Part shown: positions 37,326 to 60,385 of the stretch, piece by piece
Layout of the letters: every line of letters starts with the position of its first letter
Numbering within the stretch: position 1 is the stretch's first letter
Assembly: GCA_964016885.1 (NCBI GenBank)
Contig: OZ024741.1
Span: forward strand, 401,884,001 to 401,948,000
Origin: Eledone cirrhosa
Taxonomy: Eukaryota
Direction of reading: 5' to 3'
DNA length: 64,000 nt
The notes under the pieces: model-generated
What the model saw: only the letters and a program-made list of their open reading frames with translations
What the model was told of the DNA's origin: nothing
Databases searched by the model: none
Position numbers and translations under genes: made by a program

Positions 37326-37383
37326 TTAAAACTATACATCAGTATTAAGTACTCTTTTCTCTCAGCTGTCAACCACATACAGA

Positions 37384-38199: not shown

Positions 38200-38752
38200 T
38201 GTGTTCTGGAGAGGAGATTGCATTGGTATGGCCATGTGATGCATATGAAGGCTGACAGCTGTATAAAAAAGTGCAGGGCAATGAAAATTGATGGAAGCTA
38301 CAGAGTAGGTAGACCAAGAAAAACCTGGGACGAGGTGATAAAAACTGACCTTGCCCACTTACACCTCTCTAAGACAATGTCACTGGATCGAGATCTTTGG
38401 CGCATTGCAGTTGTACAGAAGACCCGACTACCCTTGCATACAAACCTAGTCAGTAGGCACCTCTTAACCCAATGTATACCCCACCCCACACACCCTACTC
38501 CATCCTCTCTTTTTTTTCCATTCCGTCCACTGTGTCGATGACACAACAGTCCACAGTGTAAAGTGGCCGTGTAGGAGACACGGTGAAAAGGCTCTCAGTC
38601 CACACTGTAAATGTGGTTGGTGTTAGGAAGGGCATCCAGCTGTAAAAAATCTGCCAGAGACACTGTCTCCCGACCATTCCCGCATCAAATGGAACAAAAC
38701 CATCTAACTCATGCTAGCATGGAAGATGGACGTTAAACGACGATGATGATGA
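38200..38752 (+). mobile_element. RTE family 1-like 3' end
   Basis: WYGHVMHMK..GRPRKTWDE..DRDLWR..KTRLP plus tail. Confidence 0.9.
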
Positions 38753-38827
38753 TCATCATCATTTTACGTCCGCTTTTCATTGCTTGCAAGGGTGGGATGG
38801 GTCTTATTTGATATATATATAATAATA

Positions 38828-39009
38828 ATAAAATAATACAAGGACGATTTTTTAAGCCTTCATTACGTTTATTGATTAGTGATATGCATATCGCTATTGA
38901 TCAGCTCAAGATTCGATCTGCATCGAACCATGAGCTGATCAATAGCGAAACATGCATCATAATCAATAAACGTAATGAAGGCTTAACAAATTGTCCTTGT
39001 ATTATTTAT
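38828..39009. repeat. 180-bp near-perfect palindrome (fold-back MITE)
   Basis: aataatacaaggac..aagccttcattacgtttattgatta..tcgctattgatcagctca mirrored by tgagctgatcaatagcga..taatcaataaacgtaatgaaggctt..gtccttgtattatt. Confidence 0.9.
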
Positions 39010-39472
39010 ATTACACTCTGTTTAGCTCTACACCTTGCCACTGACGTGAACCTAAACATGGAGTGCTCACCTGGGTGAACCTACAGTATCTTCACGTTAC
39101 ACTCACAGGATATATACATATATATATGTGACAACTGCATGTTATCAATATGGTGACAGATGAAAGGAACGAAAGAATACAGGACAGCCTCAAACTTTAA
39201 ATTCTACCATGTAACAGTAAAGCCTGAAATAGCCCTTTATCACATTTAGGTCAGCAGACTTCAGGAAATATATTTATATTAACAACTTAAAACCATAATT
39301 ACTTATATCACCAGCTTTGTGGCTATATGGTTGGTCTGATAACAGAGATAAAAATCATGTATTCAGTACATAGATAATATAAATGATACTTGAAAACTGA
39401 TAGGGTATTGAAGTGTGGGCAAAATAAAGAACAGCAACTTGATGCACATTAATAATAAGTATATGTACTGAT

Positions 39473-40500
39473 GGTGCCATGATAAAATGCACCCAGTTCA
39501 CACTGTAAGATAGTAGTGCTGGTGCCATGATAAAATGCAACCAGTTCACACTGTAAGGTGGTAGTGCTGGAGCCATGATAAAATGCACCCAGTTCACACT
39601 GTAAGGTGGTAGTGCTGGTGCCATGATAAAATGCAACCAGTTCACACTGTAAGGTGGTAGTGCTGGAGCCATGATAAAATGCAACCAGTTCACACTGTAA
39701 GGTGGTAGTGCTGGAGCCATGATAAAATGCAACCAGTTCACACTGTAAGATGGTAGTGCTGGTGCCATGATAAAATGCAACCAGTTCACACTGTAAGATA
39801 GTAGTGCTGGTGCCATGATAAAATGCACCCAGTTCACACTGTAAGGTGGTAGTGCTGGAGCCATGATAAAATGCAACCAGTTCACACTGTAAGATGGTAG
39901 TGCTGGTGCCATGATAAAATGCAACCAGTTCACACTGTAAGATGGTAATGTTGGAGCCATGATAAAATGCAACCAGTTCACACTGTAAGGTGGTAGTGTT
40001 GGAGCAATGATAAAATGCAACCAGTTCACACTGTAAGATGGTAGTGTTGGAGCCATGATAAAATGCAACCAGTTCACACTGTAAGGTGGTAGTGTTGGAG
40101 CAATGATAAAATGCAACCAGTTCACACTGTAAGATGGTAGTGTTGGAGCCATGATAAAATGCAACCAGTTCACACTGTAAGGTGGTAGTGTTGGAGCCAT
40201 GATAAAATGCATCCAGTCCACACTGTAAGGTGGTAATGTTGGAGCCATGATAAAATGCACCCAGTCAACACTGTAAGGTGGTAGTGTTGGAGCCATGATA
40301 AAATGCACCCAGTCCACACTGTAAGATAGTAGTGCTGGTGCCATGATAAAATGCAACCAGTTTACACTGTAAGATAGTAGTGCTGGTGCCATGATAAAAT
40401 GCACCCAGTCCACCTTGAAAGGCAGTAGTGCTGGTTTATTGCAGCCAATCCACACTGTAGGGTGGTAGCGCTGAAGTCAATAAAATGCACCCAGTACATG
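39473..40500. repeat. 48-bp minisatellite, about 21 units, running into a SINE/RTE tail (to about 40627)
   Basis: Unit ggtgccatgataaaatgcaaccagttcacactgtaaggtggtagtgct; gataaaatgc at 39481, 39721, 39961, 40201. Confidence 0.97.
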
Positions 40501-41006
40501 CTGTAAAGTAGGTGGCATTAGGAGGATATTCAGCTGCAGAAACCAAGCCAAAACATAATGTTTAAGCAAGACTTGGTCCAACCCATCTAAACATACAAGC
40601 ATGGAAAATAGATGTTAAACAGTGATGCCCAAAATGACTTTGTGAAATGAGTGTGGCTAGATTTGCCTCAGTAAAGCTGGTCTTAGAAGTCATCATAGAG
40701 GCTATGTACAAAGTGTTGCCAATTATGGTCTCTTTGACATTTCCCCCTATCGGAAGTATGGAAAACAATGTGCCTCAGCTGGTGGATCCCGTCCTTTGAA
40801 AATTACCAAAACAAAACAGGGAACCAAAGTGGAAGTTATGTTCATCACTCCAGCATATGCAGAAAAGAAGGTAAATCCTTGACAGAGCTTAAGAGTCATG
40901 TTCACGCCACCCAGGTATGAAAGGAGGATTAGGTGATGGTAATTTTTGAAATTGAGATGCAGCCATGGCCTCAGCCGGATGGCTGAAACAGGTAAAAGAG
41001 TAAAAG

Positions 41007-41037
<31 letters not shown>

Positions 41038-41109
41038 GTATGGATGCTAGGATGCATCCATAGGCGGTATGCCGGTTGAGCACTCTATGCTCCTTCAGAG
41101 CAGAGTATG

Positions 41110-41341
41110 ATAATATGGAAAACAAAGAATCAGTGATGCATCGGAACACAATTTATTACATATTACAATTGTTTCTCTGCCGAACAGCTCAAGGTGCGAT
41201 CTGTTTGCGGATCGAACCTGACTCTGGATTCGCAAGTTCCTCAGATACGTCTGGTGATTTTGAAGCAAATTATCTTTCTCAATTGTAATACATAATAAAT
41301 TGTGTTCCGATGCATTACTGATTCTTCGTTTTCCATATTAT
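41110..41341. mobile_element. MITE with about 60-bp TIRs
   Basis: ataatatggaaaac.aagaatcagt.atgcatcggaacacaatttatta is reverse-complemented at 41280-41341. Confidence 0.8.
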
Positions 41342-41999
41342 ATATATTGTTATAGTTGGGGAGGGTCATATTGTAATATTGCCAGAAATAATAACAGAAC
41401 ACACTCACTGTTTGGTTGGTTTTCGCTTCTGTATCTTTTAAATTTCCATAGTTAATTTATTTGGCAATCTATGTTTATCATTGATATGCTAGTGTGGAAG
41501 ATGGACGTTAAACGATGATGATGAACAATGATGATGACCAGCAGTTAAAAATACAGATATAAATATATATATATAGTCTATCAAAGTTCTTTCGTTGCAC
41601 ATCTGCAACATCATCAGTGGTACTATTGTATTGTAATGTAATATATATAAACATGTAGACCACTAAACTACTATATTAAAGACCTCTCCAGTCAGACTAC
41701 TATACTTAATTACCACATTACATACAAATCTACCAAATGATACGGGATGGCTTTAGCATCAGAAACCTTCGAAATGTAGTTCTATTTACCATTGATACCA
41801 GCACTGTCCCCTCTGTTTCTAACCTATACCTCAGCAGTTTTCTCCTACCTCAATACATATACACAGTCTCATACAGAGATAAGACACATCATCTCACTAT
41901 TCCACACACACACAGCTGCACAACTAAAACCCTACATCAGAAACTCACTTCCAAAACAAGAGACTGAAGGTAACCACTGAATAACCTATCACACATTTA

Positions 42000-42288
42000 A
42001 TAGGAATCCGAGGTGGTGTGCAGGAGAGAAAACTGCATTGGTTTGGATATTTGATACACATGGACCATGACTGATGGCTGAAGAAGTGCCAGGAAATGCC
42101 AATGGAAGGAAGTTGCAGTAGAAGACAACAAGTAAAGACCTGGGTAGAGGTTGTGAGAGCTGACCTCAAAATGCTGAAACTCACAGGAGAGATGACAAAG
42201 GAATGCTACATGTTGAGAGATGCCGTACTGTGAAGGACCCTTCCAACTCATGCAAACGTGGAAAATATGTAAAAACGATGATGATGAC
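42000..42288 (+). mobile_element. decayed RTE family 2 3' fragment
   Basis: Similar to 8000-8270. Confidence 0.75.
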
Positions 42289-43156
42289 ATAACACTAGAC
42301 AAATATACAGAGGACATTAGACACATCTCCAACAATCTTCAGTAGAGAAAGTAAAACAATTATCAAAGAAAGCAATAACAAGTACCACATCTGTCTCCAA
42401 CAAAAAAAACGATAGTGTAGAAGCAAAAGAGCAGACCCCATTCATGGGATCTGCAAGGCAGGGTTGACAATCTCAGACCCCTTCCATGGAATCTGAAAGG
42501 CTGGGTTGACACAACCTACATACAAAACTAAAATAGCGAGCTCCACATAGCAAATGTATAGACAACTCTGATAACTACAAAAAATACTAAGAGCGAAAGT
42601 TCAGTTGGATATGTGAAGGGCACTATTACTACAGTAAGTTTCAGTCCCCTACAGTTCCTGCTACTATACAAAACATCTCCAAACATTCAAACATTAAGAC
42701 AATACCCTAAACAGTTTCTCCCATTCAGCCCAGATATATAATAAAAAAAACAAAGTATGCATGAGCTCCCAAATCTATTAAAATGAATCCCACAAATAAC
42801 TAGAATTTACAAACCAAGTCTAGATTGACATTCATATCGTCAGAATGTGCAGTATAGTTAGACTAGACAAATGTAGGTTACAACACCTAGTTTAGTCAGG
42901 TCAGGCCAGCCAGTCAGTAGACTACTAGCATGCTATAGGTCTACACAACCACAGTTGAACTGGGGTGAGGGGGGGGGGGGGGTATCTACACAACAATAGT
43001 ATACTAAAGCTGCTGTTATAGCATAGGCAATAACTAATACAAGAGTTGACTAGTAGAGTTGGTATTTATGGAACTAAATAGCCAGAGATTAACTTCCATT
43101 TTGGGGACATTAGACAGTAAAAACAAATAAAAATAAAATAAACTAAAAATACTGAC

Positions 43157-43232
43157 CTGGCTTATAATAGAATCTAATCCACTGGCACCCCATGCATAAT
43201 CTGCTGGGTTAGCATGAAGAGGAAATATGTTT
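43157..43232 (-). CDS. RNF115/RNF126-like: RNF115/RNF126-like exon (NIFPLHANPADYAWGASGLDSIISQ)
   Basis: Acceptor ttcttcctttcag, donor GTCAGT; 76 nt; carries the family hallmark H.NP.DYAWG..GLD.I..Q. Confidence 0.95.
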
Positions 43233-43339
43233 CTGAAAGGAAGAAAACATAAACAACATTATATATATAAAATGCTATTTCAAATTAATAAGTGATTATG
43301 GCAAACATTAAATTTAGCAGAATGACAATTGAAATAAAT

Positions 43340-43650
43340 GACAAGATGGTGTCTGAGCAGCCTGATTTAAACACTAAATATCGATGGCAATGGAAATGGG
43401 CAACAAGATCCCAAACCTCACTCGCTTACCAAGTGGGGCGGGCTGTGCCAAATGTTTCCATTGGCCTTACTATTCCTGATACTATCTTCCAGTCGCAACT
43501 GCTGACAGGGTACACTAAATATAGAAGAACTAGAGGGCAGCAAAAAGCAAGATGGTGCGACAAGCTGACCCGATACCTCAGGCCCACATGGCCAGATATA
43601 GGAAGTGGTGGAGGTTAACAGGAGTGAGAAAAGCCTGGATTGGGATTTGA
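43340..43650 (+). mobile_element. decayed LINE C-terminal fragment (another RTE-like family)
   Basis: WKWA...RRTRG..KARWCD.L....W pattern. Confidence 0.45.
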
Positions 43651-44899
43651 ATAGGGTACATTACATGAGTCTCAGTGATTTGAGATCAGCTCTCACAACC
43701 TCTGCCCAGATCTTTCTTGGTCTACCTCTACTGTGGCTTCCTTCCACTGGCATTTTCTGGCACTAATATATATTCCTGGACATTTATATATAAATTATTT
43801 CTTATCCCCCACACCAGTTGTATTTTAAAATAGATTTATCAGACATGTAAATTCTACATTCAATATTTCTCTCGTAGAATTTTTTAATTTATAGAAATGC
43901 ATTTTCATAACAGCTGTGTAGTCTGCGTTTCTGTACATTTATATCATCATCATCATCACCATTTTACGTCCATTCTTCCACGCCAGCATGGGTTAGACAG
44001 GTTGTCCTGTTGTGGACAATGCCAGGTCAGGTGACCGTGTCTTGCCCATATGGAACTGATTTTGGCTTGATTTCTACAGCTGGATGTCTTCCTAACAACA
44101 ACCTCATTTACAGTGAGTACTGGGTGCTTTATTACCGTGGCACCTCCACTTTACAGTGTGGACCAGGTGATTTTTGTCACAACACCTACATGGCCACTTT
44201 ACAGTGGGAGAGAGGTGGGGCGGCATACTGTATATATGCTTCAGCTTCGGCTTGTACCTGTGGGAAGTCAGGTCTTCTGTATTACTACGTAACGCTAGAG
44301 GTCTTGGTCCTGCGTAAATTTGAAAGGTGCAATTTGGGCAAGGTCAACTTTTATCACCTCATCCCAGGTCTTCTTAGGTCTCCCCACTCGAAGGATTCCA
44401 TTGACTTTTAATGCTCTGCACCTTTTTATGCAGCTGTCAACCTTCATACACATCACATGTCCATACCAACGCAACCTCCTCTCCTGCACACAGCATTTAC
44501 ATTTATATATAAAATATATTTGATATTTCTCTCTTGCCCCGTATGATTTTGAAATAGATTTATCCTGGAACCTAGTCTCTTCCTCATTTGCTGCCCGCCC
44601 ACTCCGACGTACTACATACATCTAGACCAATCAAACGACAATAACACCAATTATCTTCAAATTTAACTCTAGCATCACAATCACTACTACTATCACTAAT
44701 ATAAGATATGAGTTCAGTGTGTTTTAGTTGGACTGTGTGGTGGCTGGACTTCAGGGTTTGAAAATGTCTTTCTGGCATGAATCTATTTTAATGCACGTGA
44801 CCAAGTGAACCTTCTTTATTTCAGCCATGGAAAGCTGGCACCAACCACAATACAGATTCCACCTTCCTTCCAAAACCCCTATCATCTTTTTTCCAGCAA

Positions 44900-47800
44900 A
44901 CTCCAAAACTTCAGAGCTTCAGCCATTAATATAGGCATAATGAGAAGATCAGGAGAGATTGTAGAGATGTTAGAGCGAGTAGATGTGTGTAGAAGAGACT
45001 AGGTGGTGGGGAAGATCAGCTAGACTCCTTGTAGGTAATGATGTTGGGTGGGAATTGATTAATGGTTAAGTGGAGTAGGTATTCTGTTAGCAGAAAAATG
45101 GGTAATGTTATCACAGTCAACAGGGCTAATGACAGAATCATTAAACTCAGGATGGTCCTAGATAGAACGAATGTGACAATTATATCTGCATATGCACCAC
45201 ATTCAGGACTGCTAGACAGACTAAAAGCAGACTTCTATGAACCCTATGAATCCCTAATACAGACTACTTCTCTAGTGAAAGAGAAAAAAGTATTAATCAT
45301 AGCAGGAGACTTTAATGGACATGTTGGGCAACACAGTGATGGCTTCTGCAAGGTACACATTACGCAGTACTGCCGAAGACCCACCTTCCCATGTGGCATT
45401 ACACAGTACTGCCGAAGACCCACCTTCCCATGTGGCATTACACAGTACTGCCGAAGACCCACCTTCCCCTGTGGCATTACACAGTACTGCCGAAGACCCA
45501 CCTTCCCATGTGGCATTACACAGTACTGCCGAAGACCCACCTTCCCCTGTGGCATTACACAGTACTGCTGAAGACCCACCTCCCCATGTGGCATTACACA
45601 GTACTGCCGAAGACCGACCTCCCCATGTGGCATTACACAGTACTGCCGAAGACCCACCTTCCCATGTGGCATTACACAGTACTGCCGAAGACCCACCTTC
45701 CCCTGTGGCATTACACAGTACTGCAGAAGACCCACCTCCCCATGTGGCATTACACAGTACTGCCGAAGACCGACCTCCCCATGTGGCATTACACAGTACT
45801 GCCGAAGACCCACCTTCCCCTGTGGCATTACACAGTACTGCCGAAGACCCACCTTCCCATGTGGCATTACACAGTACTGCCGAAGACCCACCTTCCCATG
45901 TGGCATTACACAGTACTGCCGAAGACCCACCTTCCCCTGTGGCATTACACAGTACTGCCGAAGACCCACCTTCCCCTGTGGCATTACACAGTACTGCCGA
46001 AGACCCACCTTCCCATGTGGCATTACACAGTACTGCCGAAGACCCACCTTCCCCTGTGGCATTACACAGTACTGCAGAAGACCCACCTCCCCATGTGGCA
46101 TTACACAGTACTGCCGAAGACCGACCTCCCCATGTGGCATTACACAGTACTGCCGAAGACCCACCTTCCCCTGTGGCATTACACAGTACTGCCGAAGACC
46201 CACCTTCCCATGTGGCATTACACAGTACTGCCGAAGACCCACCTTCCCATGTGGCATTACACAGTACTGCCGAAGACCCACCTTCCCCTGTGGCATTACA
46301 CAGTACTGCCGAAGACCCACCTTCCCCTGTGGCATTACACAGTACTGCCGAAGACCCACCTTCCCATGTGGCATTACACAGTACTGCCGAAGACCCACCT
46401 TCCCCTGTGGCATTACACAGTACTGCCGAAGACCCACCTTCCCCTGTGGCATTACACAGTACTGCAGAAGACCGACCTCCCCATGTGGCATTACACAGTA
46501 CTGCCGAAGACCCACCTTCCCCTGTGGCATTACACAGTACTGCAGAAGACCCACCTCCCCATGTGGCATTACACAGTACTGCCGAAGATCCACCTCCCCA
46601 TGTGGCATTACACAGTACTGCCGAAGACCCACCTTCCCATGTGGCATTACACAGTACTGCAGAAGATCCACCTCCCCATGTGGCATTACACAGTACTGCC
46701 GAAGACCCACCTTCCCCTGTGGCATTACACAGTACTGCTGAAGACCCACCTTCCCATGTGGCATTACACAGTACTGCCGAAGACCGACCTCCCCATGTGG
46801 CATTACACAGTACTGCCGAAGACCCACCTTCCCATGTGGCATTACACAGTACTGCAGAAGATCCACCTCCCCATGTGGCATTACACAGTACTGCCGAAGA
46901 CCCACCTTCCCATGTGGCATTACACAGTACTGCAGAAGATCCACCTCCCCATGTGGCATTACACAGTACTGCCGAAGACCCACCTTCCCCTGTGGCATTA
47001 CACAGTACTGCTGAAGACCCACCTTCCCATGTGGCATTACACAGTACTGCCGAAGACCGACCTCCCCATGTGGCATTACACAGTACTGCCGAAGACCCAC
47101 CTTCCCATGTGGCATTACACAGTACTGCAGAAGATCCACCTCCCCATGTGGCATTACACAGTACTGCCGAAGACCCACCTTCCCATGTGGCATTACACAG
47201 TACTGCAGAAGATCCACCTCCCCATGTGGCATTACACAGTACTGCCGAAGACCCACCTTCCCCTGTGGCATTACACAGTACTGCTGAAGACCCACCTTCC
47301 CATGTGGCATTACACAGTACTGCCGAAGACCGACCTCCCCATGTGGCATTACACAGTACTGCCGAAGACCCACCTTCCCATGTGGCATTACACAGTACTG
47401 CAGAAGATCCACCTCCCCATGTGGCATTACACAGTACTGCCGAAGACCCACCTTCCCATGTGGCATTACACAGTACTGCAGAAGACCCACCTCCCCATGT
47501 GGCATTACACAGTACTGCCGAAGACCCACCTTCCCATGTGGCATTACACAGTACTGCAGAAGACCCACCTTCCCATGTGGCATTACACAGTGCTGCTGAA
47601 GACCCACCTTCCCATGTGGCATTACACAGTGCTGCCAAAGACCCACCTTCCCATGTGGCATTACACAGTACTGCCGAAGACCCACCTTCCCATGTGGCAT
47701 TACAGTGCTGCTGAAGACCCACCTTCCCATGTGGCATTACACAGTGCTGCCAAAGACCCACCTTCCCATGTGGCATTACACAGTACTGCTGAAGACCCAC

Positions 47801-49142
47801 CTTCCCATGTGGCATTACACAGTACTGCTGAAGACCCACCTTCCCATGTGGCATTACACAGTACTGCATAAGACCCACCTCCCCATGTGGCATTACAGTG
47901 CTGCAAAAGACCCACCTTCCCATGTGGCATTACACAGTACTGCCGAAGACCCACCTTCCCATGTGGCATTACACAGTACTGCTGAAGACCCACCTTCCCA
48001 TGTGGCATTACACAGTACTGCTGAAGACCCACCTTCCCATGTGGCATTACACAGTACTGCAGAAGACCCACCTCCCCATGTGGCATTACAGTGCTGCAAA
48101 AGACCCACCTTCCCATGTGGCATTACACAGTACTGCTGAAGACCCACCTTCCCATGTGGCATTACACAGTACTGCAGAAGACCCACCTCCCCATGTGGCA
48201 TTACAGTGCTGCAAAAGACCCACCTTCCCATGTGGCATTACACAGTACTGCTGAACACCTACCTTCCCATGTGGCATTACACAGTACTGCTGAAGACCCA
48301 CCTTCCCATGTGGCATTACACAGTACTGCAGAAGACCCACCTCCCCATGTGGCATTACAGTGCTGCAAAAGACCCACCTTCCCATGTGGCATTACACAGT
48401 ACTGCTGAACACCTACCTTCCCATGTGGCATTACACAATACTGCAGAAGACCCACCTCCCCATGTGCACCAGATGAAACAAACACTAGTCTGCCCCAATC
48501 TTCGCCCTGCCCCACCCGTCTTAATACCTCCCCACATCAGCTAAATATCCCACTCCCCTTATCCATGTCCAACTTGCATACTCCCTCCCAACCCTTACCT
48601 TCCCCACCATTGATACACCTATTTAGTCCAACCAATACATGCAAGCATGGGAAGCTGGACATGCTCCACATCTGATCTCCCACAATGTTGTTGCCACGAG
48701 AAAAACACTAAGTCCAGTCTGTATGGTGAGCTGGTGCCACAACAAAAGCACAGTCTACCCTATATAAGTCACGTCAGTGACACAAAAATAAAACACCCAG
48801 TCCACTCTGTAAGGTGGTTGTGTTGGGAACATGAGAAAAAGCAGCCAGTCCAGCCTGTAAGACGCTCATGTTGGTGACACAATGAAAACAAATAACCCAG
48901 TACTGTGATTATGCTGACGGCACGACAAAATACAGCCAGTTCACCCTAAATGATTGTTTTGGTACCACAATGAAAAAGTAGCCAATCCACACTGTAGGTT
49001 AATATTAGGAAGGACATCCATTTGTAGAAACCAAGCCAAAATACAGATCTGTATGAGCAAGACGTGGTCACCTGACCTGACTTGTTTCATAACGTAAAAA
49101 CTTGTCTAAACCATGCAAGCATGGAAAAATAGACATATGATG
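44900..49142 (+). mobile_element. internally deleted RTE: endonuclease remnant + amplified last codons + 3'UTR/tail
   Basis: EIVEMLER..NDRIIKLR..ISAYAPHSG..IIAGDFNGHVG up to 45357; then the array; then 3'UTR-like sequence ending gcaagcatggaaaaatagacatatgatgat. Confidence 0.75.
45358..48466. repeat. 39-bp minisatellite, about 80 units, with higher-order structure
   Basis: Unit cattacacagtactgccgaagacccaccttcccatgtgg. Confidence 0.98.
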
Positions 49143-49400
49143 ATATATATAAGACAATAAAACTCCATTTTTCTACTTTGTTAGAATATAAAATTGGTTA
49201 ATTCCTAGAGCAAGAATCATACAATTATTTAACAAACAACATTCATTTTAATTTTGATAGTATTATTTGCAGATAGACTGACTTTTTATATTTTATGAAG
49301 TTTACACCATTTAACTTAAAGAAATAAAGATGATGGCATTGGTTAAACTATTCTAATTTCTAATGAATAAATATGAAATTATTTTAATATATATACTTAC

Positions 49401-49457
49401 AACATTCCAGTATTTGGCATTTCTGTTTGCAAAGGACTAATAAATTGGAATAATAGC
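49401..49457 (-). CDS. RNF115/RNF126-like: RNF115/RNF126-like exon (LLFQFISPLQTEMPNTGM-L)
   Basis: Acceptor ttttgttttcag, donor GTAAGT; 57 nt, phase 2 to 2; joins both neighbours in frame. Confidence 0.85.
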
Positions 49458-49520
49458 CTGAAAACAAAATTTACAGAATTTAAAAACAAACAATTATAAT
49501 TATAAAAAAAAACATTAACA

Positions 49521-49728
49521 AAATTCATTGATAATTAAGATGATCAAATTCATTGATTAATAAAATGATCAAAACATTGATAGTTAAGATGATCAAATTC
49601 ATTGATTAATAAAATGATCAAATTCATTGATTAATAAAATGATCAAATTCATTGATTAATAAAATGATCAAAACATTGATTAATAAAATGATCAAATTCA
49701 TTGATTAATAATAAAATCAAAACATTGA
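49521..49728. repeat. 25-bp tandem repeat, about 8 units
   Basis: Unit aaattcattgattaataaaatgatc. Confidence 0.9.
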
Positions 49729-52015
49729 GATAAGGTAAATAAATAGATCAAAGTTTAATGACTGAAATGTACTCAAAAACATCAATCTTCTAAAAGCTAC
49801 TAAGGACTCTTCAGCTGTGTTAACACAACCTCTTCCTAGTGTTGGTGATCTACAAGATAAGGGGTTGCAAATAGGGAGGGCACCCAACCATAGAAAGATT
49901 GCTAACGAAAGGGTCAGAAGGACTCTTCAGTTGAGTTAATGGCACAGCAACCTCCTACAGTTGGTGATCTACATGATAAACACACCCAGTACACACTGTG
50001 AAATGGTTGCTGATAAGGAGGGCACCCAACCAATAGAAAGATTGCTAGACAAAAGATAAGGACTTTTCAGTTGTGTCAAAGACAACCTCCCTTGTGCTGG
50101 TACCATGATAAAATGCACTCGGCAGAGCACGGGAAAATATGTAAGCAAGATGTAAGGCCTGTCTATCTGAGAGGCCAGTAGCCCCACTTAAATAGTGACT
50201 TGGTCTGTAAAGACCTGTCCAACCCTTACTAAGCAGGGAACGATGTTAAATGATGAGGAAGAAACTGTTAGTAATGTTCTGTTGTGACATTATATCCTAA
50301 TATCAATATATCTCAGGAAAGAAATATATTTGTTGACACTAATCTCTAGGATGTACTAAAAAAGTTGAAAGTCTGTCTCAAATCTGGAGGCTCATCAGGC
50401 TGCTGGTGTTTATCCTGGTTTCCATGGTGTTAAGTGACTGAGAGCACATGACTTCCCCCTGGACATGACACCAGTCCATCACAGGGTTAAACCCCCAGTT
50501 ATTGCTGGTACTCATTTTCAGCTGAGTATACTGGAACAATGTGAAATGAACTGTTTTGCTCAAGAACAACACACAACCCAGTCCAAGAATCAAACTGATG
50601 CCATTATCATCATACATCCAACACCTTTACCACTAGGCCATGCTTCTCTGGATTGTATCCCTTATTAAAAAAAAAAAAACTACATCCTTCTGTTATATAT
50701 CTAGTTGAATTAAAATTTTCTGATATTGACTAATTTTACAATTACTAACTTTTGCAACATATAAAAAAAACAATTCTGAATTGAAAGTGCTCCAATTTTA
50801 GTCCTCACACAAACATTAGTTGTTTAGCCCCAACTCAGTCCGAATGAAACAGACTTGTAATCAAAGGTCTAACAGCTACGACCATCACATGTATCTACTA
50901 CTATATAATAAAGTACTATTAAAACATATCTACAAATATAAATGACTACCATGAATTTCATCATCATCATCGTTTAATGTCTATCTTCCACGCTAGCATG
51001 GGTTAGACGGGAATTGTCCCACTTGAGGCAAGATTGGTTGGGTGACTGTGTCTCGCTCATATAGGACTATCTGGCAGGTTTACTACAGCTGGATGCCCTT
51101 CCTTACACCAACCACATTTTCAGTGTGGACTGGGAGCTTTTTACCATGTTACCTACACGACCACATTACAGCGTGGACTGTGATTTTTGTCGTGACATCT
51201 ACACAACATCATTAGTTTGGACTGGATGTTGTAGTACCAACATAACTTTACAGAGAAAGGGTGGTGTTGGTGGGAGTGGGAGGATGGAGTAGGGGTAGTG
51301 GGTTGGGTGTATATTTGGTTAAGAGGTGCCTACTGACTGTAGGCATTTACCTACATATACCTAGTATATGGCAGTGAATTGGCAGAGTCGTTTGAATGCC
51401 AGAATACTTTGATATTCATTTCAGCTCTCTGCTTTTTGTGTTCGAATCCTGCCATGGTGAACTTTGCCTTTCATCCATTTGAGGTTGATAAAAAAAGTAC
51501 CAGTCAAGTACTGGAATCAATTTTTCCTCCATATCTCAATCTCACTTCCATTCTCCCACTTTAAAAGAAATCTGCTGGAGAGGAAATGGGCTCTGCCAGG
51601 TTTAAAGATGCCCTAGAAACACCAAATATCAATATGGCACACTCAGGAATTACAGGTCCATACCATACATATCTCATGAACAAGTACACAACTTCAGAAG
51701 TGGAAGGGTTTACTAAAAGAACTGTGACACTTTCTCACCTCCTCCATAACATTGGAATGATAGCAACCCGTCTGAGGAAGGAGCCCTGTGAGGTGGGGTC
51801 ACTGGGCATTGTCCACGGGGCGAAGCCAAAACATCACTCTGACCTAGATATAGAATCTAGTCACCGCTTTTCTCCGTTCCCTTATCTAATAGTCCTTGCT
51901 CTCCCCTCTCCTTTATGACATTTATAGTTCTTTCCAATACTACTTTCTTTTTCTCTATATTTGACCAATTTATAGTTATATCAACAATAAATAAATAAAT
52001 TCTTAAAAAAATATA

Positions 52016-52469
52016 TTAAACCTTTTGATACCAACCCACTGAAACCCTCGCCTCTGCTTCTATGGAATAAAACCACTTATTTTAAAGGGTTCTTATTTAA
52101 CAGCCCGCAACAGCTTCGAGGGTACTAATGAAATTTGTTAAAAGAATTTAACACGGTCTCTGATGTTGCATAATGCACCTAAAACTGAAGGTGAAAGATT
52201 AGTCAGAATATGAACTTCACGGCGAGCTCCACCGATTTCCAAGGTATTTAGGGACTGGGCAATGATTGGTCAGTGGGAAAAATTCAAAAGTACCTTCGAT
52301 GGTGTCATGGACTATAAATTAAAATCTTCCAACATCATTTTTATACGAGAATCTTTTGTTATATTACAAATATCACCTTAATAAAGAAACAAGTTTATCA
52401 AATCATTCCAAATTTTCCGTTAATTTAATACAATGTATTTTATTAGAAATATGGTAACGAAAGGGTTAA
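52016..52469. mobile_element. TTAA-flanked MITE beside an exon donor
   Basis: ttaaaccttttgatacca ... tggtaacgaaagggttaa; partial relative at about 55365-55500. Confidence 0.55.
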
Positions 52470-52487
52470 ATAACATTAGATATTTAC

Positions 52488-52633
52488 CTTTCTATATCAT
52501 AATATTGATTAGGTCTGTCTCTTGTGTTATGCCGACGCCTACCATTACTTCGACGCTCACTGCCTTCTTCCTCTCTTTCATGTTGTCGATTTTCTCTGGA
52601 GCGAAGGACTGGATTTCTAACATTTTCCCAGAA
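52488..52633 (-). CDS. RNF115/RNF126-like: RNF115/RNF126-like exon (FWENVRNPVLRSRENRQHEREEEGSERRSNGRRRHNTRDRPNQYYDIE-R)
   Basis: Acceptor cctttattttag, donor GTAAAT; 146 nt, phase 0 to 2, open; R/E-rich linker as in the family. Confidence 0.8.
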
Positions 52634-52659
52634 CTAAAATAAAGGGGAAATATTTTTAA

Positions 52660-52945
52660 AAAAGAGAGAAAAAGATGAGAGATGAGAAAAGAGAGCAGAG
52701 CAAAGAGAGAGAAAGGAGAGTGGAAGAGAAATGAGAGAGAAAAAAGAGTGGAAGAGAAAAGAGAGAGAAAAAAGAGTGGAAGAGAAAAGAGAGAAAAAAG
52801 AGTGGAAGAGAAAAGAGAAAAAAGAGTGGAAGAGAAAAGAGAAAAAAGAGTGGAAGAGAAGAGAGAGATAGGAAGAGAGAGAGAAAGAGTGATGAGAAAT
52901 GAGAGAGATAGGAAAAGAGCTAAAGGGGAGAGAGGGGTGAGGTAA
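52660..52945. repeat. GA-rich simple repeat (long polypyrimidine tract on the gene strand)
   Basis: (aaaaagagtggaagagaaaagag)n. Confidence 0.9.
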
Positions 52946-53089
52946 TATAAACAGGGATTATCTGTTGATCTATTTAACAGCTTTTAGAAAGCCAAATATA
53001 TGTTGTATATTTAGCTTATGTTTCTATGTTGTGGCTGTCCTTGACAATGTACTTAATATACTTAGTGGTGTATGTAACTTGCGAGATAC

Positions 53090-54445
53090 ATCATCATCAT
53101 TGTTTAACGTCCATGTTCCACGCTTACATGGGTTTGGACGGGCGTTTTCCCACTTGAGGCAAGAGTGGTTGTCTTGCTCGCATAGGACTGTCTGGCGGGT
53201 TTCTACAGCTGGATGCCCTTCCTAACACCAACCACATTTACAGTGTGGGACTGGGAGGTTTTTACCGTGTTGCCTACACGGCCACATTACAGCGTGGACT
53301 GTGTTTTTTTGTCGTGACACCTACACGATCTCATTTGTTTCGGCCTGGATGTTGTGGCACCAACATAACTTTACATTGAAAGGGGCGGTGTGGATGGGGT
53401 GGGGGTGGTGGGACGGGGGTGTATTTTGTTAGAGATGCCTACTGACTGTAGTAGGTTTTACTTTGTATTTAGGTAAGGCGGGTCTTCTCTATTACTGAGT
53501 GCCGCCAAAGATCTCGGTCCAGTGACATTGTCTTGGAGAGGTGCAAGTGTATGAGGTCGGAGCTAATCAGGTCGTCCCAGGTTTTTCTGGGTCTGCCTAC
53601 TCCGTGGCTACCGTCTATCTTTATTGCCCTGCACTTTTTTATACAGCTGTCGTCTTTCATGCGCATCACGTGACCATGGCAACGTAGTCTTCTCTTGAGT
53701 AAACAACATCTGATCCTTCTTATTTCTAATTTTTCCCTTAGTTCGTTTATGCTTTGCCGTTCGCGTATATTACTATTACACATCCAGCGGAGCATGCAAA
53801 CTTCGTTCCTCTCTAGTCTGCGTATATCCTCTGCACACAATGCCCAGGTCTCACTGCCATGCAACATTGCTGTTCGTATGCAGGCATCATACAGCCTGCC
53901 TTTCATTTTTAGGGAGAACCCTTTAGCGGCTAATAGTGGTATAAGCTCTCTGAACTTTTTCCATCCAGTTCTGACTCTAGCTACTGTACTTTCAGAGCAC
54001 CCTCCCCCAATGCTGATTTTATCACCCAGGTAACGGAAGCTGTCCACTATTTCTATAGAACCCTCTGCGCAATTGAAAGAGCTAGTATTTTGTGGGCACT
54101 TGCTGCTACTTATTGCACCAGAGCACCGGCCACATGTAAAATCTACGTTCTTAGTTAGCTTACCTATGATCCCACTACATTTTTTATGCACCCATACTTT
54201 GCATTTGGGACATAAAATGGAGTTTCTACCTACGCCTTTCCTACACACTGAGTATGGCCATTTCCCGGAAGGGACCGCCGCCTTATTTTCTTTCCTACAA
54301 ACTAGAACTTTAGTCTTAGCCAGGTTAATTTTAAGGCCTTTTGATTCTAGGCCGTGCTTCCATGTTTGGAATTTCTTCTCTAGCTCGGCCATTGATTCAG
54401 CTATGAGCGTTAGATCATCTGCGTATAGGAGTTCCCATGGGCAGC
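53090..54445 (-). mobile_element. young 5'-truncated RTE family 1 copy
   Basis: Open frame 53469-54445 from CPWELLYADD to the end, near-identical to the full-length element, with a full 3'UTR. Confidence 0.96.
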
Positions 54446-54539
54446 ACATATTAAAGAACATAGCTAATCCGCATCACTAGGCTAATGGATATAAAACAAT
54501 GACAATTCGAGTTGGGATGAAATAGTCAGCACTACTTGC

Positions 54540-54900
54540 TTCTAGAGATGGCTGAACGTACCAGTAATTATGGCAATTACCTGGAAAGTGTAGCCCCAGA
54601 TCAGAGAGTGACTCCAGTTAGAATTGCTACTTCTCCGAATTGAAAGATCACAACACCAATACTACAGGCATGTGGTTAGAATGTCTCAGGAAAGGATCAT
54701 TGGACAGATTTTACAGGCAAAACCAACTTGCATGAGACCCAGGGGTAGACTCTAAGCAAAATGGTTGGATAACATCCATGAGCTTAGCTGGTCACACTTG
54801 GGTATCCAGCTCGATCAGTTAGAGACAGTTGCTTCTGACAAGACATGCTGGAGGGAGTGTTTGAGGACTGCCTCCACAACCTTCTCAGGAATAAGTAGGC
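54540..54900 (+). mobile_element. decayed RTE-like LINE C-terminal fragment (different family)
   Basis: LLLRIERSQ..YRHVVRM..RPRGR...WLDNI..L.W..LGI. Confidence 0.65.
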
Positions 54901-55623
54901 AAAGAAGACCTACAATGCCTTGTCATCTTCCAAATACAAAGACATGAAATACTTTGCCATCTTTATCATTAGAAAATGATACTGTAATAAAAAAAATTTA
55001 GATATAATGTCAGATTAAAGCAGAGAGGAGGTGACTTTTAGTTAGGATAATATATGTTTATCAGCAAGTTATTTTGTTAACAGTCTTAAATTTATTAAAA
55101 CTTTTGTTATATCAATGTCACTTTTATCATGCAGTGTGTGTAACAAAAATGTGTCAAGATATCATTATTATTGTGAAAAACATTTAAAATTCTACTTGCA
55201 GGCATACCAGAATTGAGTTTGTCCAGAGCACCAACTGTAAAGCTTGCTTGCTTCATAGTTCCAAGCCAAAGCATGGGTATTCTTACACAAGTATTACAGG
55301 TATTGAATGAAATTATAAAACTGCATTAATTAAACCTATACTAGCAAACAAAATATTTTCTACTTTAACCATTTTGATACCAAATCTCCTCTGGTTTTAC
55401 AATACAAAATTGCTTTAAAATATTTATGTCTAAAAACCTATTGTAATTTTGTTAAGTAATGTTCCAAATACTAGCTTAATAATGAAAAAGTAATTTTAGG
55501 AAATTTCCCTAAATTCTTGATTTTCAAAAATCATAGGTTATAGGAATAACTTATGATTTTCAGGAATAAGTAGGTGAAGAAGAAGAAAAAGATATTTAAC
55601 AAAAAAAAAGAAAAATATCTTAC

Positions 55624-55693
55624 ATCAAAAATATGTCTTCCAGAATCTTGATCTTGTTGTAAAGGCGTAGTTCTTGGTGTGTTGGAAAAATCT
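55624..55693 (-). CDS. RNF115/RNF126-like: RNF115/RNF126-like E3 ligase, first exon visible in window (DFSNTPRTTPLQQDQDSGRHIFD)
   Basis: Acceptor ctatcttcag, donor GTAAGA; 70 nt, phase 2 in and phase 0 out, in frame with the next exon. Low-complexity linker, so assignment rests on splice sites and phase. Confidence 0.7.
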
Positions 55694-55919
55694 CTGAAGA
55701 TAGAAGTTGTTAGGACATAAAACAATTATCACAGATTAACATTTTTTTCTTTCTTTTTTACTCTACCAAATCTTTGGAAAATGAAAATATCACCCAGAAC
55801 TGAAATCTAACAAAATTACAGAAATTGTAAATGAATACTTTGGAGTGGAGAGAGGATGATAAAATCTCAAAGATGAGTTTAAAAAAAAAATTTCTTTTAC
55901 TATTAACCTTATTTTTGGA

Positions 55920-58900
55920 CATCATCATTGAGACCACATTCAAACATTCCTGACAAAGTCTCTCCACAATTTCCTATTGCCTCTGGCAACTGTTTCTTAG
56001 AGAGGTTTGTATTGTCTGAGAGTTGATCAATGAAGTTTCAAGCAGGTCTTCCACTACTGTCTCTCCTATGAGTTAGTTCCCACAATAGTAACTTGTGTAT
56101 AACTTCCTCTGCTGTGAGTTAGTTCCCACAATAGTAACTTGTGTATAACTTCCTCTCCTATGAGTTAGTTCCCACAATAGTAACTTGTGTATAACTTACT
56201 CTACTCTCTCTCCTATGAGTTAGTTCCCACAATAGTAACTTGTGTATAACTTCCTCTACTCTCTCTCCTATGAGTTAGTTCTCACAATAGTAACTTGTGT
56301 ATAGCTTACTCTACTCTCTCTCCTATGAGTTGGTTCCCACAATAGTAACTTGTGTATAACTTCCTCTACTCTCTCTCCTATGAGTTGGTTCCTACAATAG
56401 TAACTTGTGTATAACTTCCTATATTATGTCTCCTATGAGTTGGTTCTCACAATAGTAACTTGTGTATAACTTCCTCTACTCTCTCTTCTATGAGTTGGTT
56501 CCTACAATAGTAACTTGTGTATAACTTCCTCTATTGTGTCTCCTATGAGTTGGTTCTCACAATAGTAACTTGTGTATAACTTACTCTGTCTCTCCTATGA
56601 GTTGGTTCCTACAATAGTAACTTGTGTATAACTTCCTCTACTCTCTCTCCTATGAGTTAGTTCCCACAATAGTAACTTGTGTATAACTTCCTCTACTCTC
56701 TCTCCTGAGTTAGTTCCCACAATAGTAACTTGTGTATAACTTCCTCTACTCTCTCTCCTATGAGTTAGTTCCCACAATAGTAACTTGTGTATAACTTCCT
56801 CTACTCTCTCTCCTATGAGTTGGTTCCCACAATAGTAACTTGTGTATAGCTTGCTCTACTCTCTCTCCTATGAGTTGGTTCCTACAATAGTAACTTGTGT
56901 ATAACTTCCTATAGTGTCTCCTATGAGTTGGTTCTCACAATAGTAACTTGTGTATAACTTCCTCTACTCTCTCTTCTATGAGTTGGTTCCTACAATAGTA
57001 ACTTGTGTATAACTTCCTCTATTGTGTCTCCTATGAGTTGGTTCTCACAATAGTAACTTGTGTATAACTTACTCTGTCTCTCCTATGAGTTGGTTCCTAC
57101 AATAGTAACTTGTGTATAACTTACTCTACTCTCTCTCCTATGAGTTAGTTCCCACAATAGTAACTTGTGTATAACTTCCTCTATTCTCTCTCCTATGAGT
57201 TGGTTCCCACAATAGTAACTTGTGTATAACTTCCTCTACTCTCTCTCCTATGAGTTGGTTCCTACAATAGTAACTTGTGTATAACTTCCTCTACTGTCTC
57301 TCCTATGAGTTAGTTGCCACAATACTAACTTGTGTATAACTTCCTCTACTGTGTCTCCTATGAGTTGGTTCTCACAATAGTAACTTGTGTATAACTTCCT
57401 CTACTGTCTCTCCTATGAGTTAGTTGCCACAATAGTAACTTGTGTATAACTTCCTCTACTGTGTCTCCTATGAGTTGGTTCTCACAATAGTAACTTGTGT
57501 ATAACTTCCTCTACTGTCTCTCCTATGAGTTAGTTCCCACAATAGTAACTTGTGTATAACTTCCTCGCCTATGAGTCAGTTCCCACAATAGTAACTTCCT
57601 CTACTGTCTCTCCTATGAGTTAGTTCCCACAATAGTAACTTGTGTATAACTTCCTCTACTGTCTCTCCTATGAGTTGGTTCCCACAATAGTAACTTGTAT
57701 ATAGCTTCCTCTACTCTCTCCTATGAGTTGGTTCCCACAATATTAACTTGTGTATAACTTCCTCTACTGTGTCTCCTATGAGTTAGTTCCCACAATAGTA
57801 ACTTGTGTATAACTTACTCTACTCTCTCTCCTATGAGTTAGTTCCCACAATAGTAACTTGTGTATAACTTTCTCTACTGTCTCTCCTATGAGTTAGTTCC
57901 CACAATAGTAACTTGTGTATAACTGCCTCTACTCTCTCTCCTATGAGTTAGTTCCCACAATAGTAACTTGTGTATAACTTCCTCTACTCTCTCTCCTATG
58001 AGTTAGTTCCCACAATAGTAACTTGTGTATAACTTCCTCTACTCTCTCTCCTATGAGTTAGTTCCCACAATAGTAACTTGTGTATAACTTCCTCTACTCT
58101 CTCTCCTATGAGTTAGTTCCCACAATAGTAACTTGTGTATAGCTTCCTCTACTCTCTCTCCTATGAGTTGGTTCCCACAATATTAACTTGTGTATAACTT
58201 CCTCTACTGTGTCTCCTATGAGTTAGTTCCCACAATAGTAACTTGTGTATAACTTCCTCTACTGTGTCTCCTATGAGTTAGTTCCCACAATAGTAACTTG
58301 TGTATAACTTCCTCTACTGTCTCTCCTATGAGTTAGTTCCCACAATAGTAACTTGTGTATAACTTTCTCTACTCTCTCTCCTATGAGTTGGTTCCTACAA
58401 TAGTAACTTGTGTATAACTTCCTCTACTGTTTCTCCTATGAGTTGGTTCCCACAATAGTAACTTGTGTATAACTTTCTCTACTGTGTCTCCTATGAGTTG
58501 GTTCCCACAATAGTAACTTATGTATAACTTCCTCTACTGTCTCTCCTATGAGTTAGTTCCCACAATAGTAACTTGTGTATAACTTCCTCTACTGTCTCTC
58601 CTATGAGTTGGTTCCCACAATAGTAACTTGTGTATAACTTCCTCTACTGTCTCTCCTATGAGTTAGTTCCCACAATAGTAACTTGTGTATAACTTACTCT
58701 ACTGTGTCTCCTATGAGTTGGTTCTCAATAATAACTTGTGTATAACTTCCTCTACTGTCTCTCCTATGAGTTAGTTCCCACAATAGTAACTTGTGTATAA
58801 CTTCCTCTACTGTCTCTCCTATGAGTTAGTTGCCACAATAGTAACTTGTGTATAACTTCCTCTACTGTCTCTCCTATGAGTTAGTTCCCACAATAGTAAC

Positions 58901-59400
58901 TTGTGTATAACTTCCTCTACTCTCTCCCCTATGAGTTAGTTCCCACAGTAGTAACTTGTGTATAACTTCCTCTACTGTCTCTCCTATGAGTTAGTTCCCA
59001 CCATAGTAACTTGTGTATAACTTCCTGCTTACTTCTCCAGTAATATTCTGCCAATCATAACTGTCTTTTAGCAATTGTTATCTTAGGCAAATTTCTTTAT
59101 AAACTTTTAATTGTAATATATTGATGTCAGTTTATGTTTTGTACAATCCTAAGCATTTTAGTGTATGCACCATCTAGTTACTTCTCAAGTGTCTGTATCA
59201 GGGTCTATATACATGATCCATACAACACCAACTCAATAGATGTTCTGAAGAATGATATTTCTATTTTTCTGGGTATTGTTTTGGACACAAAGATTGATTA
59301 ATATTTACATCTACACTACTTTTCAACTGGTTTCATCTAGATCACCATAAACTGTCATATTTGTGGATGTGTATAGGCCTTCATTTGGAAATATGTTCCT
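55920..59400 (-). mobile_element. decayed RTE-like LINE 3' fragment hosting the 55-bp array
   Basis: Minus-strand translation LVLYGS..TL..TLEK*LDGAYTKMLR..NLPKI..YWRSKQ-[EVIHKLLLWELTHRRESR]n-GRPA*NFIDQL.., then a short GATGAT tail. Confidence 0.8.
56053..59025. repeat. 55-bp minisatellite, about 54 units
   Basis: Unit gagttagttcccacaatagtaacttgtgtataacttcctctactctctctcctat; period confirmed at 57781, 58001, 58111. Confidence 0.98.
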
Positions 59401-60385
59401 GGTTGAAATTTAGTTTGATCATAAATCAAACAATAATATAGATGAAATACATTATTTTTATATCCACATGGAAGATAGACGTTAAACGATGATGATGATT
59501 TACCATGCTGGCATGGGCTGGATGAGACACCTTTGGGGCAGTTTTTCTATTGCCAGATGTTCCTACTGACACCAACCAATACTTTATTATTTCTTAAGTA
59601 TATGATGTTCATTAAACAAAAAGCTGCAAGACATTGTTTATGAGGGGCATAAACAAACATCACTGCTTGCTTTCGATATGGAGACATGTAGCTTCTAATA
59701 GCTACACATATGATGGCTACCTTACAGTTTCCACTAACCTAATATGCTCAATAATATTTTTGTTTTTATTTAAGGTAAATTTAATGTAAATATAACTACA
59801 GTTTTTTATTTAAAAGCCTCGTTGTGAAAAGAGGTAAACACTTGATATTATTGTCTGTATGAATTTCAGAGATTGTTGACTCCTCATCAGAAGGAAACTA
59901 GTCTTATGTTCCTGTCTACAGAGGAATCTTTACAACATTGCTACATCAAGTAGGATGTAGAATAGAGCTGAAATGATCAGTCTAATTCATATGACATGCA
60001 TCTAAAACAAATTTCTAACTTCAACTAGTACCACATCTCTGCCACAGTTGAGACATAACAAGAAATGTATATTTAAATTAGTGTCTACACTGTTAATGTG
60101 GTTAACGCTAAGAAGGGAATCCAGCCACAGAAACTAAGCCAGAAACAGTTTTGTATGAGCAAAACAGAGTCACCTGATCTGATTTGTCTCACAACAGGAC
60201 ATCTCATCTAACCCATGATAACGTGGAAAATAGACGCCATGTGATGATGATGATGATACAAGTTCCCACCTTTGCCAGGGACAAAAACATTAGTTGAAGC
60301 TAAGATCTTTTCAAAACTTTTCATGTTTATCTAATTGTAGACAATTTACTTCACTGATTTCTTTCAATCTATCGTTGCAAATGTA

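Follow-up and report, generated by a model that had tools for sequence, protein, structure and literature searches.

Do the large minisatellites in the introns of one Eledone cirrhosa gene arise where they stand, from the 3' ends of the retroelements around them, and by what process? The window analyzed here, a stretch of 64,000 nucleotides, holds arrays with units of 48, 39, and 55 bp within a single gene (Table 1). The first-pass annotation had taken them for three independent cases of one recurrent process acting on RTE 3' ends, either repeated template jumping by reverse transcriptase or later slippage and unequal exchange. Our analysis corrects the mechanism proposed earlier. The three arrays are minisatellites derived from transposons. 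Each started from a different seed and probably lengthened well after its host LINE copy had inserted, through slippage and unequal exchange at the DNA level.

Table 1. Features of the host gene, its arrays, and the adjoining elements (positions within the window)
Feature	Position	Strand	Remarks
Near-full family-A LINE, natural reference	8337..11990	-	one 1093-codon frame: endonuclease, reverse transcriptase, PHD-like finger
Host gene, RING-H2 E3 ligase	15210..59900	-	exon borders by eye
Exon-like segments of host gene	59838-59900, 55630-55702, 52489-52635, 43158-43232, 27769-27857, 17241-17357, last near 15210-15297	-	
48-bp minisatellite	39465-40434	+	20.2 copies by TRF, 970 bp
Family-A LINE/SINE 3' end and tail, holder of 48-bp array	40435..40590	+	best relative 77% identical
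Family-A LINE 5' part, endonuclease-coding	44902..45357	+	cut by private ~2.5 kb deletion at left edge of array
39-bp minisatellite	45358-48466	+	80 copies by TRF, 3109 bp
3' UTR and tail of same element as 39-bp array	48467..49145	+	67-75% identical to relatives
Family-B LINE 3' end and tail	55921..56059	-	
55-bp minisatellite	56153-59026 (TRF, 52.9 copies); 54 units from ~56060	-	2967 bp
Family-B ORF remnant upstream of 55-bp array	59027..59275	-	~250 nt; copy 5'-truncated
Fourth array, 50-bp unit (start)	63917..64000, continuing beyond window	+	~198 more copies, ~9.7 kb

The arrays themselves are real. TRF confirmed all three as head-to-tail repeats of units between 10 and 100 bp, and their summed length is about 7.0 kb, as first described. 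With exon borders placed by eye, each lies between exon-like segments of the same minus-strand RING-finger gene, the first exon of which is located about 29 kb past the window end; from its motifs, the gene is presumably RNF126/RNF115-like. The proposed inflation of introns is supported for two of them, in which the arrays make up 34% and 72%, with a 6% share in the third.

The origin of the units follows from comparison with the host LINEs. The family-A reference encodes an AP endonuclease and a reverse transcriptase in a single frame and ends in a short-repeat 3' tail, features of RTE-clade LINEs, and from C-terminal motifs and tail we take the host LINEs to belong to that clade. Family B shows weak translated similarity to family A (25-45%), with a tail identical in kind. 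When aligned to a LINE library built without window-derived seeds, all three units matched LINE 3' regions (E values of 1e-18, 5e-4, and 2e-16 for the 48-, 39-, and 55-bp units), and the reading of each unit as a slice of its host retroelement copy is upheld. The accompanying statement that element sequence adjoins every array stands in part. The 55-bp array has colinear flanks on both sides when set against the other family-B copies (19 of 19); the 39-bp array is adjoined as described on its right, but on its left stands endonuclease-coding sequence of the 5' part of the element rather than 3' sequence; and the 48-bp array has element sequence on the right side only, its left flank giving no match in 1.38 Mb of sampled genome.

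The 55-bp array belongs to a family that can be followed across the genome. Its unit encodes the last ORF codons of family B, 125-180 nt from the tail, and in the unduplicated element a 6-bp direct repeat, AGGAAG, lies at both ends of the unit, as in the Haber-Louis type of minisatellite. The junction word between units gave 1,294 matches (control, 0), and matched patterns recovered 18 loci with flank, unit, and junction versus 140 single-unit copies. In all, 22 loci on 8 contigs carry 2-68 units each, most of them with intact element sequence on both sides. Duplication in about 11% of detectable copies, when the background rate for a 55-bp stretch is about 0.25%, identifies the AGGAAG-bounded site as a strong recurrent duplication hotspot. 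The seed is a duplication between the two AGGAAG repeats, 55 bp apart at the family-B ORF end, presumably made by slippage or by unequal crossover between them. On C1-C4, 9 of 12 arrays but only 3 of 33 single copies lie within 20 Mb of a chromosome end (p 4e-5), and the bias persists when the C1 cluster is counted as one (4/7 arrays, p 0.011).

The other two arrays began differently, and the three are therefore not like events, as had been supposed. The 48-bp array (20 units, 93.2% mean pairwise identity, 17 distinct unit types in ordered blocks) is an expansion of a repeat that pre-existed in tandem in the family-A 3' UTR: at least two copies are found in 16 of 23 sampled 3' ends, and three other loci hold 4.3, 6.4, and 13.8 copies. 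This tandem repeat was the seed. The 39-bp array (about 80 units, 94.9% identity, 15 distinct unit types in ordered blocks) has a unit drawn from the terminal ORF codons, which in its own subfamily lie about 700 nt short of the tail. Unit and right flank are contiguous in dispersed copies, with a match to the unit at 8 of 11 loci. All 74 junction matches fall inside this one array (control, 0), and none was found outside it at one mismatch, which makes it a single-locus array. Its left edge coincides exactly with an edge of the deletion of about 2.5 kb, and the homology at the unit boundaries, only about 2 nt, is too short for direct-repeat seeding. The seed arose once, probably in the same rearrangement as the deletion. 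A non-autonomous deletion family behind this element was considered and rejected, as the break interrupts none of the 14 other copies examined.

The idea that all large arrays derive from RTE 3' ends fails on a fourth array in the same gene. This 50-bp array is the largest of the gene, is multi-locus, and has its source in the middle of a SINE-like element, without an RTE 3' end (the unit gave one match, E 2e-4, in 1.9 Mb). In this array and its relatives, a near-identical 9-bp direct repeat bounds the unit, within the 5-10 bp range that also includes AGGAAG. With a SINE-like body as the source of this array and of its relatives, the route to such arrays needs no RTE 3' end. All four large arrays of the gene are of retroelement origin, more than the sample average would lead one to expect, which counts against the present reading. 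Of the six smaller window arrays, none matches the RTE library.

The proposed link to RTE 3' ends was also examined in a genome sample of 138 segments of 10 kb (1.38 Mb), in which TRF bases amount to 25.2%. In a test that is small, length-biased, and limited to RTE families seeded from this analysis, 3 of 47 complex minisatellite arrays matched the RTE library, compared with 88 of 705 controls (p 0.35), as did 0 of 20 large arrays. In favor of the first-pass annotation, all three matching arrays fall inside the last 500 nt of the element, versus 44 of 88 controls (p 0.24), and the 55-bp site is a recurrent hotspot; these 500 nt, however, hold 53% of RTE bases in the sample. The enrichment that the first-pass annotation expected for this segment was not found in this sample, and the data do not support a mechanism peculiar to RTE 3' ends. 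A label-free comparison with any dispersed DNA gave 10/47 arrays and 255/705 controls, figures that do not prove depletion because families that are less common or more ancient escape a database of 1.38 Mb. As the window is rich in RTE sequence (36%, and 39% of its introns), the local chance of three of three RTE-derived arrays is about 0.05, and 0.01-0.02 for the last 500 nt. Complex arrays account for 18.6% in distal versus 7.0% in interstitial sequence (p 0.043). The genome probably converts many kinds of DNA into kilobase-scale arrays, especially toward the ends of chromosomes. The gene itself lies in a distal, RTE-rich region, where, because copies are 5'-truncated, 3' ends are probably the most abundant starting material.

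What decides between the mechanisms is the age of the units relative to their hosts. Units are 93-95% alike within arrays and the host copies 67-84%, so that growth to kilobase scale postdates insertion. For the 48- and 39-bp arrays, the flanks are 67-77% identical to their best relatives. In the window 55-bp array (54 units of 37 distinct types, arranged in ordered blocks, with 92.9% identity), the first and last units are 98% identical and share two derived letters, and private letters common to first and last units recur in several arrays of this family; single-unit copies of the site are 82.1% identical (n=35). Repeated template jumping in target-primed reverse transcription, writing kilobase arrays at insertion and specifically from RTE 3' ends, would account for the 3'-region position of all three window units and all three RTE-matching sampled arrays. 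However, it predicts units about 82% alike, and sits poorly with the block duplications in the 39-bp array, where a block of nine unit types is repeated (shuffles reach this in at most 6 of 500 runs), with the lack of 3'-end enrichment in the sample, with the origin of the gene's largest array, and with the 51-bp and 76-bp arrays that arise at another family-B site, some 250-300 nt farther upstream. As the units are younger than their hosts, the arrays were not built by template jumping, although it may have seeded some. As array builder it is largely refuted by unit age, rescue being conceivable only through complete later homogenization of every array, and we consider it highly improbable; of the mechanisms first offered, later slippage and unequal exchange survive. 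Equally remote is the explanation that the arrays are assembly artifacts. No read record spans an array, but the 17, 15, and 37 distinct unit types stand in ordered blocks, element sequence is intact around most of the 22 loci, and a 69-nt contig over the 39-bp unit junction has a depth of 151 in run X1 compared with about 7 in unique flank, a ratio of about 20 that is no measure of copy number, in a run that may be the source sample; array lengths are those of the assembly.

A closer rival places only the seed at retrotransposition, where reverse transcriptase would slip once from one short direct repeat to another or a dimer-bearing sub-master would be copied, and leaves the expansion at the DNA level. 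Initiation during retrotransposition is suggested in PMC3389668, and the position of the 39-bp array at an internal deletion would fit. So would a dimer at C3:14.9, the units of which, 84% alike, are as old as the insertion; however, plain dimers occur at only 1 of 18 loci, and the private letters shared by first and last units, in the window array among others, speak against it. Truncation of the 5' end within 45 nt of the array affects 6 of 18 array hosts and 1 of 15 singles, an excess that falls short of significance (p 0.095; 0.29 by rank test). Array hosts also share letters: one flank letter occurs in 6 of 10 of them and, in two counts, in 0/37 and 7/77 single-unit copies, and one unit letter in 12 of 13 non-C1 arrays and 11 of 35 single-unit copies. 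Some 55-bp arrays may therefore descend from a sub-master already holding the duplication. An obligate duplicated sub-master for the family was rejected on account of the seven single-unit copies with the marker flank letter, which the window host itself lacks. Array hosts are 81.6% identical in their flanks among themselves and 82.1% to single-unit copies, and their tree has 9 changes between array and single labels compared with 11.1 when shuffled. The tree, which is star-like, neither establishes nor rejects monophyly of the hosts that bear arrays (p-AU 0.278). Flank was sufficient in 12 of the 20 array rows, and 8 of the 10 rows dropped out of 63 (<150 aligned columns) were arrays. On balance, we regard seeding at reverse transcription as unlikely, and prefer growth and seeding at the DNA level.

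On top of DNA-level growth, exchange between loci can act. Arrays of the 55-bp family no more than 15 Mb apart on one chromosome are 91.7% alike, compared with 86.3% for others (permutation p 2e-4), or 88.6 versus 85.7 without the C1 cluster at 425-435 Mb (p 0.015). Seven C1-distal arrays are as similar between as within arrays (92.9%) and hold a common letter found in 0 of 35 singles, although in 13 of 15 pairs their host flanks are only 77-86% alike; a single-unit neighbor at C1:430.5 lacks the cluster letters. Likewise, the window array and C2:398.7, 3.2 Mb apart, have a common three-letter variant, two letters of which co-occur in 0 of 35 singles. Variants common to neighboring arrays on unrelated host copies suggest ectopic exchange, by gene conversion or template switching, in which existing arrays would convert, or trade units with, nearby single-unit copies. 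Not every 55-bp array would then have been born in place. We put this forward tentatively, as one possibility. The flanks overlap over short lengths only (39-325 columns), local duplication acts too, as two C1 pairs with 96-99% identity show, and C2:219.2 (91.2%) and C26 (91.0%) are just as close to the window array. Repair inside arrays that favors the majority variant could moreover slow divergence and mimic exchange, and pattern ascertainment inflates between-array identity. The broader speculation, that conversion writes array and variants into unrelated copies within a few Mb near chromosome ends and that fixed LINE/SINE hotspots feed a sizeable part of the tandem quarter of the genome, appears somewhat more doubtful. 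Ectopic spread, if true, would connect dispersed repeats with the way in which concerted evolution of satellite families begins.

Transposon-derived minisatellites are already known, and the invertebrate LINE-based case is a new addition. The direct-repeat model and transposon hotspots are described in PMC3389668 and PMC6947457, where the work of Jurka and Gentles (2006) and of Haber and Louis (1998) is also cited. Among the human examples of Ahmed and Liang (2012, PMC3389668), units are likewise slices of the host element, some with 5-10 bp direct repeats, hotspots lie inside elements, and local expansion comes later; their LTR12 case, with the repeat already in the master, resembles our 48-bp unit. 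The human arrays have mostly 2-3 units, whereas those here reach 50-200, in RTE-type LINEs of an invertebrate and with one site duplicated in about 11% of detectable copies. The squamate SINE-derived satellites of Vassetzky et al. (2023, PMC10702118) share, in the sections available, multi-locus arrays of one retroposon slice with few to hundreds of units, a subtelomeric tendency, and greater uniformity of longer arrays. Their units are 70-290 nt from SINEs, compared with 39-55 nt from LINE ORF ends or UTR repeats here, and the sharing of variants between neighboring arrays seen here does not appear in those sections. The first third of an O. vulgaris repeat paper (PMC13282606) contains no treatment of minisatellites. 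A mostly open-access literature search found no cephalopod minisatellite paper and, by titles, none on template jumping building such arrays or on ectopic minisatellite spread. The 55-bp site amounts to a natural experiment: more than 100 copies hold a single unit, and at least 22 hold arrays of 2-68 units. It offers a common background against which to compare how minisatellites are born, grow, and spread, a matter that the papers cited leave open. In a retroposon system of 1998 with a six-base unit, germline instability has reportedly been measured. In that system, listed in PMC6947457 and PMC9659126, one retroposon site expands into arrays at many loci, as it does here with a unit of 55 bp.

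The window (G000:C2:401.88-401.95 Mb of the 3.0-Gb assembly; the contig end is 14 Mb away) contains three large minisatellites, 7.0 kb in summed length, which Tandem Repeats Finder (TRF) places where the first-pass annotation had put them. Minus-strand exon-like segments encode a RING-H2 E3 ligase (Pfam zf-RING_2) with PDB relatives including RNF126, and from its motifs we take the gene to be RNF126/115. As its first exon lies about 29 kb past the window end, all three arrays are intronic within a single gene; the 48-, 39- and 55-bp arrays have intron shares of 6%, 34% and 72%, respectively, with exon borders read by eye. The earlier reading, in which all three were born in situ from RTE 3' ends by template jumping or by later slippage or unequal exchange, is mostly right as an observation and overstated in mechanism and generality.

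Arrays and repeat elements of the window and of compared genome stretches (L-numbers)
Feature	Position	Strand	Remarks
48-bp array, x20	39465-40434		TRF
39-bp array, x80	45358-48466		TRF
55-bp array, x53-54	about 56060-59026		TRF and unit comparison
50-bp array, about 9.7 kb	63917-64000 and L256:1-9686		fourth and largest of the RING-H2 gene
48-bp repeat, two-copy versions	6334-6438 and 6809-6924		TRF
Near-full LINE, family A	8337-11990	minus	uninterrupted 1093-codon frame: endonuclease, reverse transcriptase, PHD-like finger
Two-frame LINE-like element	about 19450-23450	plus	49-bp internal repeat at 19814-19942
MITE-like short elements	38831-39007, 41110-41341		arms 48 and 62 nt, 94-96% complementary
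Two arrays, same 60-bp unit	61218-61458 and 62519-62911		1 kb apart, 37-bp array between
84-bp array, x17	L121:2921-4385
76-bp array, x14.8	L259:1201-2312		second family-B site
51-bp array, x5.1	L012:1297-1553		second family-B site

The 48- and 39-bp arrays are hosted by LINE family A and the 55-bp array by family B; the two putatively RTE-type families have a tail type in common and weak translated similarity. Both flanks of the 55-bp array match 19/19 family-B copies in colinear order; where a copy has a single unit, two AGGAAG words spaced 55 bp apart enclose it. For the junction word the genome gives 1294 matches (control, 0). A pattern counting every array once gave 18 array loci, against 140 single-unit copies by a matched pattern, and the site is thus arrayed in roughly 11% of cases versus an expectation of about 0.25% per 55 bp based on the genome sample. 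With four loci followed up additionally, the family comprises 22 loci of 2-68 units each, and 9/12 arrays versus 3/33 single copies lie near chromosome ends. A second family-B site is also arrayed, and stretch L013 holds a 39-bp x4.1 array whose left edge is identical to that of the 55-bp unit.

Units are 92.9% identical within 55-bp arrays versus 82.1% among 35 single-unit copies, which argues strongly against template jumping as the builder of kilobase arrays; in the window, first and last units are 98% alike, with derived letters in common. Host flanks form a star tree (array-array 81.6%, array-single 82.1% and single-single 84.1% identity), with 9 label changes versus 11.1 when shuffled and a p-AU of 0.278, at which a single clade of array hosts is not rejected (53/63 rows kept). 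Full independence of the arrays is opposed by one flank letter (6/10 array hosts versus 0/37 and 7/77 single-unit copies) and one unit letter (12/13 non-C1 arrays versus 11/35 singles). Together with a dimer whose units are 84% alike, as old as its insertion, and host ends within 45 nt upstream of the site (6/18 array hosts versus 1/15 singles, p = 0.095), these common letters make it possible that the duplication was seeded during reverse transcription or already arose in a sub-master. Single-unit copies with the marker flank letter (L260-L266) are located on small contigs or close to the ends of chromosomes, 6/7 also with the array-common unit letter, and are possibly a regional subfamily.

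Arrays at most 15 Mb apart are 91.7% alike versus 86.3% for the rest (p = 2e-4; 21 arrays, a 99% twin and a half-locus duplicate left out), and p is 0.015 for the 15 arrays outside the C1 cluster. That cluster (C1:425-435 Mb; L216-L220, L223, L187-L194) holds seven arrays within 10 Mb, two of their hosts being 99% identical. These seven have letters in common that are rare or absent in singles, and most of their host flanks are only 77-86% alike. The window array has a unit variant in common with an array 3.2 Mb away. The simplest reading of this likeness would be ectopic exchange, against which count short flank overlaps, local duplications and the two distant arrays to which the window array is equally close. 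The 22-locus hotspot family and its possible ectopic spread are the parts deserving follow-up.

The 39-bp unit is the ORF end of a family-A element. In dispersed copies the unit and right flank are contiguous, and 0/11 carry an array at this position. The left flank is endonuclease region, and as 14/14 other copies run on beyond that point, about 2.5 kb has been lost privately at the array edge. All 74 genome matches of the junction word fall within the window array (control, 0), and a 69-nt contig spanning a unit junction has a depth of 151 versus about 7 for unique flank, from a run that may be the assembly's source and in which no sequence reaches across a whole array. Units are 94.9% alike (17 types), with a repeated 9-type block (500 shuffles: mean 2.9, maximum 6), whereas flank identity to relatives is 67-75%. 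This block duplication and youth point to growth after insertion, which would proceed by unequal exchange or slippage, as the first-pass annotation had allowed.

The 48-bp array, adjoining element sequence on its right side only, is instead an expansion of an inherited repeat and no new birth. The repeat is already tandem in family-A 3' UTRs, with at least two copies in 16/23 sampled 3' ends and 4.3, 6.4 and 13.8 copies in 3/11 loci of one subfamily; two further expansions occur among 47 sampled complex arrays. The near-full family-A LINE is a candidate young copy. The two-frame element is presumably CR1-like by its motifs.

In the fourth array of the gene, the unit is bounded by a near-identical 9-bp repeat and stems from a SINE-like element's body, in which a tRNA-like box was recognised by eye and ARAGORN detected no tRNA. 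With 50-bp-spaced matches at C4:330.9, C26:13.08, C7:10.45, C8:34.87 and C28:107.2 Mb, its units form a second hotspot family. Such an origin weakens RTE 3' ends as the general source and adds weight to direct-repeat hotspots located within dispersed repeats. Nor was the suggested 3'-end enrichment found in 138 evenly spaced 10-kb stretches (L021-L080, L096-L133, L146-L185): RTE-library matches occurred in 3/47 complex arrays (at least four units, primitive period 16-200) versus 88/705 length-matched controls (p = 0.35) and in 0/20 arrays of at least 900 bp, in a small test limited to RTE families seeded in this analysis, which detected all three window units as a positive check. Six smaller window arrays gave 0/6 matches. 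RTE cover is 10.3% in the sample (53% of RTE bases in the last 500 nt) and, with a larger library, 36% in the window, 39% in its introns and 26% for the last 500 nt. The local chance of three-of-three RTE arrays is near 0.05 (0.01-0.02 for the last 500 nt); among about 47,000 windows, some would be expected to carry such a set.

The window arrays are of a known kind, TE-derived minisatellites. In the parts of the literature consulted, human examples have the same features of hotspots, direct-repeat seeding and master-inherited repeats (PMC3389668, PMC6947457), SINE-derived satellites are multi-locus and subtelomeric (PMC10702118), much as the 55-bp family is multi-locus and end-biased, and ectopic repair is discussed as a route to such arrays (PMC9659126). 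The literature searched gave no cephalopod minisatellite report.

Tandem repeats make up 25.2% of sampled bases, and array DNA makes up 18.6% of distal versus 7.0% of interstitial stretches (15 versus 81 stretches, p = 0.043), with RTE content also higher in the distal ones. In several stretches a single minisatellite fills 8-10 kb, with unrelated 16-66 bp units. The 84-bp array, included among the 47, resembles what we take by motif to be a C2H2 zinc-finger coding repeat. The 60- and 37-bp window arrays, without RTE-library match, lie inside another repeat family.
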